Shown in pieces: positions 57,445 through 58,041 of a DNA stretch of 64,000 bases. Source of the stretch: Bdellovibrionales bacterium (GTDB taxonomy: Bacteria; Bdellovibrionota; Bdellovibrionia; Bdellovibrionales; UBA1609); assembly GCA_965205645.1 (NCBI GenBank), contig OZ242172.1, positions 704,122-768,121 of the forward strand, given 5' to 3'. Below the pieces are notes generated by a model that saw nothing but the letters and a program-made list of their open reading frames with translations, searched no databases and was not told the DNA's origin. The translations under genes were made by a program, and so were the position numbers. The number at the start of each line of letters is the position of its first letter. Position 1 is the first letter of the stretch.

Positions 57445-58041
57445 ATGATTATTAATTTATCAGGTGAGGACATTAATGAGAAAAAACTAACTTGGTGGTT
57501 AGAGCAGGTGATGTTGGAGTTAGAAAAGAGGAATATTCAGCCAAAGTTTATGTCTAAGGATCTAAAGAGGGCGGTTAATAGATGGGACATTAATTTAGTG
57601 TTTGTATTGGAGCAAAAGATGCAGGAGCTTAATCGCACATTTAGAAATCAGGATTGTGTGACGGATATTTTAAGTTTTTCTTTTATAGATAAACATAATT
57701 TGCAAAGTCGTGACAATAACGCAAATGGAGCCGCGGCGAAAGTAACCCCCTTTGGGGGCGCAGTGACTCCCTTGGGGGGCGGCGCAGTGACCCCCTCTGG
57801 GGGAATAGTGAAGTTGCCTTCTATGGAAGTGCCGATTTTAGGGGAGTTGGTATTATGTTTACCGGTGATTCGTCAGAAAGCGATGGATCTAGATTTTTCT
57901 CATTGGCTGCATTATTTAATTGTACATGGTATATTACATTTATTTGGTTTTCAGCATGAGTTATCGGATCAGGAGGGCGAACAGATGTATCGTATTCAGG
58001 ATGAAGTGTTTGAAAAACTAGTTTCTGGTATAGAGGATTAG
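57445..58041 (+). CDS. ybeY: rRNA maturation endoribonuclease YbeY with a ~38-aa in-frame repeat insertion
   Basis: HGILHLFGFQHE zinc motif, TDILSFSF and GELVLC. The segment between them is repeat-encoded. Confidence 0.9.
   Translation: MIINLSGEDINEKKLTWWLEQVMLELEKRNIQPKFMSKDLKRAVNRWDINLVFVLEQKMQELNRTFRNQDCVTDILSFSFIDKHNLQSRDNNANGAAAKVTPFGGAVTPLGGGAVTPSGGIVKLPSMEVPILGELVLCLPVIRQKAMDLDFSHWLHYLIVHGILHLFGFQHELSDQEGEQMYRIQDEVFEKLVSGIED
57688..57803 (+). repeat. Forward repeat unit with three consecutive C5/G5 hairpin modules, in-frame in ybeY
   Basis: GATAAACATAATTTGCAAAGTCGTGACAATAACGCAAATGGAGCCGCGGCGAAAGTAACCCCCTTTGGGGGCGCAGTGACTCCCTTGGGGGGCGGCGCAGTGACCCCCTCTGGGGG. Confidence 0.92.

Follow-up and report, generated by a model that had tools for sequence, protein, structure and literature searches.

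A copy of a lineage-specific mosaic hairpin repeat lies in frame in the YbeY gene of a Bdellovibrionales bacterium

The ybeY gene and its element-derived insert

The window analysed here is a stretch of 64,000 nucleotides (nt) from contig OZ242172.1 of a Bdellovibrionales bacterium (positions 704,122 to 768,121, forward strand), and coordinates refer to positions within this window unless a related contig is named. Towards its 3' end the window carries ybeY, a gene for a conserved RNase, in which one surface loop of the protein is encoded largely by a copy of a dispersed mosaic repeat (the element). The locus was compared with four orthologues for which DNA was available (L001, L002/L003, L004 and L005) and with an alignment of 79 YbeY sequences that includes the window protein. 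The features of the gene and of the insert are as follows.

57445..58041 (+): ybeY open reading frame (ORF), 198 amino acids (aa) including the insert; identified from the ORF list, Pfam, AlphaFold2 (AF2) with Foldseek, and synteny
57683..57806 (+): insert contributed by the element, made up of head, body and three hairpin modules (peptide approximately FIDKHNLQSRDNNANGAAAKVTPFGGAVTPLGGGAVTPSGG), in the beta3-beta4 loop; nhmmer match at 57683-57761 with E=3e-21, repeat-family modules, phmmer and predicted local distance difference test (pLDDT) values
57691..57715 (+): element head AAACATAATTTGCAAAGTCGTGACA, with the 8-bp palindrome TTTGCAAA inside; zero mismatches to the copies at 414, 489 and 55386
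57709..57741 (+): body and replacement tract, of subfamily A type (as at 55290 and 55388), where L001 has subfamily B; 13 differences in 33 alignment columns
57741..57761 (+): hairpin module 1, CCCCC-TTT-GGGGG, 21 nt, encoding VTPFGGA; -8.9 kcal/mol
57762..57785 (+): hairpin module 2, CTCCC-TTG-GGGGG with one G-U/T pair, 24 nt, encoding VTPLGGGA; -8.1 kcal/mol
57786..57806 (+): hairpin module 3, CCCCC-TCT-GGGGG, 21 nt, encoding VTPSGG; -8.9 kcal/mol
57925..57957 (+): zinc-binding motif H161-x3-H165-x5-H171 (HGILHLFGFQH); columns invariant in the 79-sequence alignment

The ORF matches the Pfam YbeY profile PF02130 (UPF0054) with E=8e-25 and 87.6 bits against a cut-off of 25, over profile positions 18-129 of 129, and the AF2 model built from the 79-sequence alignment (mean pLDDT, 83.8; predicted template modelling score, 0.79; core pLDDT, >90) has the YbeY alpha/beta fold. 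Searched with Foldseek, the model found YbeYs as its sole significant matches, those of E. coli, Aquifex, S. aureus and Thermotoga (1xm5, 1oz9, 7y7o and 1tvi; E 6e-6 or better, template modelling (TM) score normalised to target 0.64-0.80), with TM 0.74-0.80 for the first three. The structure prediction proposed as a check in the initial annotation of this stretch, made from the sequence alone, returned a confident YbeY core with an insert of low confidence. The closest named YbeYs, at ~30% identity, belong to Bdellovibrio/Bdellovibrionota and Persephonella, with no sign of a Rickettsia host, and an exact look-up of the window YbeY sequence had no match.

The zinc motif HGILHLFGFQHE is intact, as annotated, and all of the invariant columns of the alignment are kept (R67, T73, L76, S77, F78, G133, H161, H165 and H171). 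With the insert left out, the core of the protein (residues 1-80 and 125-198) has a ratio of nonsynonymous to synonymous substitution rates (dN/dS) of 0.28 relative to L002, 0.15 relative to L004 and 0.17 relative to L005, and is under purifying selection. L001, L002, L004 and L005 have the same order of genes around it, murJ-ybeY-prfB-lolC-lolD-bamA, and, predicted from the motif, the dN/dS values and this gene order, the window ybeY looks functional.

The interval 57688-57803 reads in frame within this ORF, as the initial annotation had it, and the insertion that it described holds, though not the length of 38 aa: D82-G120 comprises 39 aa and, with repeat likeness starting at 57683, ~40-41 aa of YbeY (residues ~80-121) are element-derived. 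A phmmer search against the PDB aligns residues 36-82 and 124-191 as separate segments, and the 41 residues in between (83-123) lack a counterpart there; the peptide AVTPLGGGAVTPSGG lies in the predicted translation of the insert. Beyond the exact matches of the head, a 15-mer taken from it has seven matches where 0.7 are expected by chance, and BLAST aligns 72-73 nt of the ybeY copy with intergenic units upstream, at 55290 and 55384, at 94-96% identity. On this similarity the insert is a copy of a dispersed repeat, beyond chance resemblance, and the claim of a repeat-encoded loop stands.

In the copy the head is joined to a body of subfamily A, followed by three modules whose starts are 21 and 24 nt apart. 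The three C5/G5 modules had been recognised correctly, but the copy is not a full repeat unit, as it lacks the CCGCCG-AGT-CGGCGG tail hairpin of the tandem intergenic units. The description of three strong consecutive hairpins was overstated, each having five G-C pairs and -8 to -9 kcal/mol, while the 136-nt insert region as a whole (-43.2 kcal/mol) folds no better than dinucleotide shuffles (z=-0.66).

In the AF2 model the insert falls between the strands at residues 75-79 and 131-138, with a pLDDT of ~50 for residues 81-130, and it is predicted, within this low-confidence region, to form a disordered loop at the surface between the LSF strand and the GELVLC strand. For S. aureus YbeY, the structure paper describes a long beta3-beta4 loop that has no order in the crystal and an active-site cleft made up of helices alpha2, alpha3 and alpha5, with zinc near alpha4 (PMC9895993). 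Measured as the segment from LSF to the G of G(E/D)L, the loop has 8-16 aa in 65 of the 79 YbeYs, in line with the annotated view that it is normally short, but 21-38 aa of unrelated sequence in nine others from outside the clade of the window. Within the clade, loops of 54, 60 and 164 aa are found in the window, L001 and L004 (with ~40 of the 54 window residues element-coded), 36 aa in L002 and 32 aa in L005. Long loops of other lineages (P0011, P0012, P0100 and P0118, among those of 21-38 aa) occupy the same position in the fold as the window insert and differ from the mostly element-coded 54-aa window loop in having unrelated sequence without detectable repeat origin. The initial annotation had named equivalent long loops of unrelated origin outside the lineage as an observation that would count against it; such loops do occur, which bears out part of that refuting observation, but they show a permissive site and do not contradict a repeat origin here. 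The insert is probably tolerated because the beta3-beta4 site is naturally permissive, being variable and flexible, and inserts of this kind mark permissive YbeY loop sites usable for protein engineering.

The element family and its hairpins

Each unit of the element is a mosaic of a head with the palindrome TTTGCAAA, a body, a (GAATC)GCGGCG joint, hairpin modules and an optional tail. The head (~45 nt) is non-palindromic as a whole, the body exists in at least two subfamilies that are 3 nt apart in length, and the modules, one to several per unit, are 21-28 nt long and each form a 5-8-bp G/C hairpin; the tail hairpin occurs in tandem intergenic arrays. Searched with an nhmmer profile of 13 units, the window yields 24 copies, the ybeY copy included, and two more contigs from related genomes yield 13-14 per 20 kb. 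Outside the insert, the principal copies in the window are the following.

55285..55460 (+): pair of subfamily A units between rpsT and murJ, to which the ybeY copy is most closely related, inside a 266-nt block absent from L001 (BLAST, alignment)
55513..55620 (+): older, decayed copy overlapping the annotated murJ 5' end, common to L001, L002 and L004 (nhmmer)
57225..57433 (+): two tandem units and an extra 28-nt module in the murJ-ybeY spacer, up to the ybeY ribosome-binding site (repeat finding, nhmmer)
406..804 (+): in-frame copies in a gamma-glutamyltranspeptidase (GGT) ORF, in the same frame as in ybeY, with units at 406-556 and 727-804 (nhmmer)
1313..1429 (no single strand): inverted pair of copies near the GGT C-terminus (nhmmer)
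16488..16993 (-): six tandem ~86-nt units, intergenic, upstream of secG (nhmmer)
21144..21321 (-): two units downstream of argS (nhmmer)

Constraint on the element is apparent in its hairpin. When copies were picked by the conserved joint alone and the next 29 nt were scanned, a perfect hairpin of at least 5 bp was present in 30 of 37 copies, compared to a mean of 1.9 (maximum, 7) in 500 shuffles, although the copies include tandem duplicates and are not independent, such that counts of covariation exceed the number of underlying events. The stems fall into at least five types with differences on both arms (CCCCC, CACCC, CTCCC, CCCTC and CCACC), and the encoded peptide shifts with the stem type (VTPFGG, KTPSGC, VTLFEG). 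As the stems vary by compensation while the peptide changes, the constraint lies on the nucleic-acid hairpin and not on the peptide, and the contrast of compensatory hairpins with a drifting peptide provides a clean argument that selection acts on the hairpin and the protein merely tolerates it.

Copies are in frame in ybeY and GGT, and further copies reach into the 5' ends of the argS and murJ ORFs. Two of the insert's three sense frames contain stops; the third, open frame encodes a hydrophilic product with a high content of Gly, Pro and Thr, and it is also the frame read in the GGT copies (406-556, 727-804 and 1367-1429). Unit periods inside genes are 75, 21 and 24 nt, all multiples of three, compared to 103, 93, 86 and 28 nt in spacers.

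Searches for the element outside the lineage were negative within their scope. The head 18-mer had five single matches only in the GTDB representative genomes, in unrelated taxa and evidently by chance; a gapped head-to-joint pattern had no match in the Joint Genome Institute (JGI) metagenomes, no Rfam family matched the element, and the plasmid and phage collections held no similarity to it. A role of the element as a portable promoter was considered and dropped, a promoter scan having seen no sigma-70-like site within elements.

Several observations concern the genes beside individual copies. The last spacer module upstream of ybeY (57407-57444) ends in GAGGGAGGAGG, 7 nt 5' of the ybeY ATG, as it does in L001, and judging by this position the 3' arm of an element appears to supply the ybeY Shine-Dalgarno sequence. 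The annotated N-terminus of MurJ (MHSSDMKAAESRRN...; murJ, 55530..57197) overlaps the decayed copy, the Pfam MurJ match begins at residue 57, and the murJ gene call of L002 is 35 aa shorter than that of the window. The GGT ORF (174-1469, +; Pfam PF01019, E=3e-79), the 5' end of which lies off the window, has element peptides at three sites, one of which (SKLDLHSRDIDVRNRGAVTLLGG) directly precedes the autoprocessing/catalytic threonine of ETTHFS. The first ~26 codons of argS (19302..21143) are element-coded (RGESNPLWGRGAVSPPIWG) in a different frame, with the ATG inside an element (19277-19380), and the Pfam N-terminal domain of ArgRS begins at residue 36; the true start of argS may be further downstream, or the element may supply the start. 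The six-unit array sits 39 nt upstream of secG (15991..16449), whose 152-aa ORF has a SecG domain only at residues 4-72.

Public gene calls made wholly of tandem units, P0123 and P0124 among them, occur in related contigs (L012, 7693-7902 and 10001-10186; L013, 4082-4678, 6904-7626 and 10001-10204), and a profile of the doubled-unit peptide found only two short repeat-made ORFs, from the same samples as L001 and L004. Repeat-made gene calls such as these are spurious ORFs, and repeat inserts inflate or fragment gene calls in this lineage, both as repeat-made ORFs and as element-derived N-termini.

Turnover at the ybeY site and competing explanations

A comparison of ybeY in related genomes, proposed with the initial annotation, finds the element present at this site, decayed in one relative and expanded in another.

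L001: 97.2% DNA identity over 16.4 kb (background divergence 2.8%); same insert, four modules
L002/L003, sponge metagenome: ~82-85% DNA identity; decayed head and body, one degenerate hairpin
L004: ~80-85% DNA identity; about four full units, 164-aa loop
L005: ~73% DNA identity; 32-aa loop, no detectable element similarity

In more distant YbeYs the loop is short. The 32-aa loop of L005 might pass by eye for a head in decay, yet nhmmer, aimed at this locus, had no match in it, and no such origin is claimed. Either the element has been at the ybeY site since before the split of the window, L002 and L004 (synonymous divergence, dS, 0.5-1.0), or the site has been targeted repeatedly.

The near-identical genomes of the window and L001 catch the element in the course of changing inside a conserved RNase gene, by tract replacement and gain of a module with the frame kept. 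Every indel of at least 20 nt between the two, up to the end of bamA, falls in an element locus, including the window-only 266-nt block with its two subfamily A units, additional element sequence of 101 and 75 nt in the murJ-ybeY spacer of L001, and an extra module of 20-21 nt inside the ybeY of L001. Within the ybeY copy, 13 differences are concentrated in the 33-nt tract 57709-57741, with none in the 49 columns before it and identical flanks; in this tract the window has the A body found 2.3 kb upstream, and L001 the B body as in the GGT copies of the window. Both changes in ybeY keep the frame (+3 and +21 nt). The swap of the tract bears the signature of gene conversion or replacement among copies, which would have occurred after ~3% genome-wide divergence. 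The stem types are also those of the respective genome, CCCCC and CTCCC in the window, L001 and L012, and CACCC and CCCTC in L004 and L013, and the use by the ybeY copy of the hairpin types of its own genome points to concerted evolution with the genomic copy population.

The explanation that accounts best for these observations, to which a probability of roughly 80% is assigned, is that YbeY carries, as a disordered surface loop, the translation of a lineage-specific mosaic repeat copy that is tolerated, kept in frame and reshaped by recombination. A copy of a selfish or neutral repeat would have been placed in the beta3-beta4 surface loop, and the ribosome would read through it to give a disordered loop rich in Gly, Pro and Thr. 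Tolerance would have three reasons, in that the loop is variable and flexible, that it lies outside the conserved residues, and that the frame in use is the sole stop-free sense frame and hydrophilic. Purifying selection on YbeY would hold each change in length to a multiple of three, the copy would exchange sequence with other genomic copies by gene conversion or re-insertion, and modules and whole units would be gained and lost by recombination or slippage; because the copy swaps and resizes with the genomic copies, its content would track the element population of each genome. The peptide is presumably neutral or slightly deleterious for YbeY, and the hairpin is presumably what a propagation machinery or process recognises, with exchange most plausibly by gene conversion. 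The central proposal of the initial annotation, a repeat copy translated as a loop in an otherwise intact YbeY, is supported, and its terms 'essential' and 'selfish' are inferences.

Several points weigh against this explanation. No transposase, REP-associated tyrosine transposase (RAYT; REP is defined below) or other mobilising gene is present among the 45 ORFs of the window, the last four of which were identified via their L001 counterparts, and no clean target-site duplication was seen at the single presence/absence junction examined (the 266-nt block compared to L001), where the pattern suggests that an array of older decayed heads underwent deletion or recombination. With neither a target-site duplication nor a terminal inverted repeat, transposition is not demonstrated and recombination among pre-existing copies could suffice, so that the mode of spread of the element is inferred. 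To the non-independence of the hairpin copies can be added that L004 has a 1-nt frameshift in a G-run near the start of ybeY (~codon 7; L004 9930-9960) and many genes that are split relative to the window, probably from long-read homopolymer error, though this could be genuine decay. Translation of the insert and activity of the enzyme are predictions from sequence and model, and a second, insert-free ybeY could still lie elsewhere in the genome.

A stronger version of the same idea, in which an active hairpin-dependent copying or recombination system, maybe using a structure-specific enzyme encoded elsewhere, keeps rewriting, on a strain-level time scale, surface loops of housekeeping proteins such as YbeY, GGT and perhaps ArgRS and MurJ, is doubtful. 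If true, the YbeY loop would be a coding minisatellite with a length polymorphism that has phenotypic consequences for ribosome maturation or host interaction.

Co-option of the insert, either as a new interaction surface of YbeY or through mRNA hairpins that regulate ybeY translation or stability, is unlikely. It would fit the retention of the element in ybeY by lineages that are separated by a dS of 0.5-1.0 and the compensatory change that conserves the hairpins, and enterobacterial REP-type hairpins are known to stabilise mRNAs. However, close relatives vary in the peptide, in the number of modules and in the number of units (loop lengths from 36 to 164 aa), and unrelated proteins and spurious ORFs contain the same peptide. 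The folding energy of the insert region is unexceptional, and L002 has lost its hairpin modules while its core is still under purifying selection.

Improbable, too, is the inactivation or decay of ybeY with another gene supplying the function, which the small symbiont-like genome (1.56-Mb contig, 36% GC) and the many split genes of L004 might suggest. The window, L001 and L002 each have an uninterrupted ORF, every invariant residue is retained with a core dN/dS of 0.15-0.28, and the operon context is conserved; further, just one YbeY from the window's 1.56-Mb contig is among the matches listed, which is weak evidence against a second copy.

GC-rich hairpin inserts are reported to be skipped or removed in some yeast mitochondrial genes, and clusters of GC-rich hairpins within coding sequence of an AT-rich genome recall that situation. 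A hairpin segment left untranslated, by programmed translational bypass or removal from the mRNA, is nonetheless highly improbable for ybeY, as all genic copies examined are in frame and stop-free, the length changes between strains are +3 and +21 nt, and the contrast of in-frame genic copies with intergenic periods of 103, 93, 86 and 28 nt is a signature of read-through that bypass does not require. Lastly, although repeats commonly cause misassembly, an artefact or chimeric join at the repeat is scarcely credible, given that four independent assemblies, made from different samples and including a short-read ENA assembly and a Logan assembly of one sponge run, all have the insert at this position, with flanks colinear with the relatives.

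The wider setting of ybeY is that of an AT-rich host (36% G+C; contig of 1.56 Mb) with a small, symbiont-like genome. Directly downstream, prfB (58045-59178) has CTT TGA preceded by GGAGG at ~58118-58133, with the main ORF listed only from 58216, and from this arrangement it appears to have the usual programmed +1 frameshift site. The window contains a 23S rRNA gene (38174-41177; 3004 nt compared to a model length of 2925) and a 5S rRNA gene (region 38174-41394), with no element copies detected inside the 23S rRNA; neither 16S rRNA nor tRNA genes were found in the 64-kb window, and the rRNA operon is unlinked, as in many reduced genomes. A cluster of defence/selfish-type genes at 1649-6413 and 41867-43030 includes an AbiEi-like regulator, an AAA_15/AAA_21 ATPase, DUF3226 and two AAA_14+DUF4143 ATPases, and L013 has more AAA_14+DUF4143 ATPases, adjoining a Transposase_31 gene. 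A 611-aa leucine-rich-repeat (LRR) protein is encoded at 31821-33656 (-; LRR_8, E=1.6e-85); LRR proteins are a eukaryote-like repeat protein type, typical of host-associated bacteria.

Comparison with known repeat systems

The phenomenon most similar to that in ybeY is the one that Ogata et al. (2000, 2002) reportedly described as Rickettsia palindromic elements (RPEs), selfish DNA within protein genes. RPEs are repeats of 105-146 bp that are found in frame in conserved genes (PMC2229807, PMC10969869). Like RPEs, the window element is a dispersed repeat of ~100-150 nt with both intergenic copies and copies in frame in housekeeping genes, it offers an open hydrophilic frame and occupies surface loops that fit the fold, and related species have its insertions in common or in decayed form (PMC2229807, PMC10969869); both have small-genome, host-associated hosts. 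The two are told apart here by architecture. RPEs fold end to end as long palindromes bounded by 12-bp terminal inverted repeats, whereas the head of the window element is non-palindromic, and when three units and the ybeY copy were folded, only local short hairpins appeared, with no pairing between the 5' and 3' ends. The window element further differs in its variable number of short hairpin modules and in the strain-level turnover of modules and tracts inside a gene.

In its G+C-rich hairpins of 20-40 nt, arranged in mosaic and tandemly variable clusters, the element resembles repetitive extragenic palindromic (REP) sequences, bacterial interspersed mosaic elements (BIMEs) and the REPIN-RAYT systems, with which it also shares compensatory conservation of the hairpins and copy numbers that vary between strains. 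REPs and BIMEs are, however, extragenic by definition, whereas copies of the window element are translated inside genes, and REPIN systems are associated with RAYT (Y1 transposase; IS200/IS605-like), which is not among the window ORFs; inverted REP doublets of the REPIN type were not found either, save for the one inverted pair in the GGT gene.

A third group comprises small non-autonomous elements, including the enterobacterial repetitive intergenic consensus (ERIC), the 107-bp Correia elements, Coxiella QMITE1 and the protein-coding palindromic repeats of Wolbachia, whose ORFs are reported to be fused in frame to host ORFs (PMC2229807, PMC10969869, PMC5896051). Intragenic repeats of these types belong to the same phenomenon as RPEs. 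Elements of the miniature inverted-repeat transposable element (MITE) type have terminal inverted repeats and often TA target-site duplications, in contrast to the units of the window element, which have no terminal inverted repeat, and to the one junction examined, which has no clean duplication.

By these defining features the window element is neither an RPE nor a MITE, although the phenomenon is RPE-like. Repeats within protein genes have been known for ~25 years; what is new is the element family, its modular hairpin architecture and the strain-level rewriting of the loop of a conserved RNase, which together extend the RPE phenomenon to an unrelated, uncultured small-genome lineage with a different element architecture.

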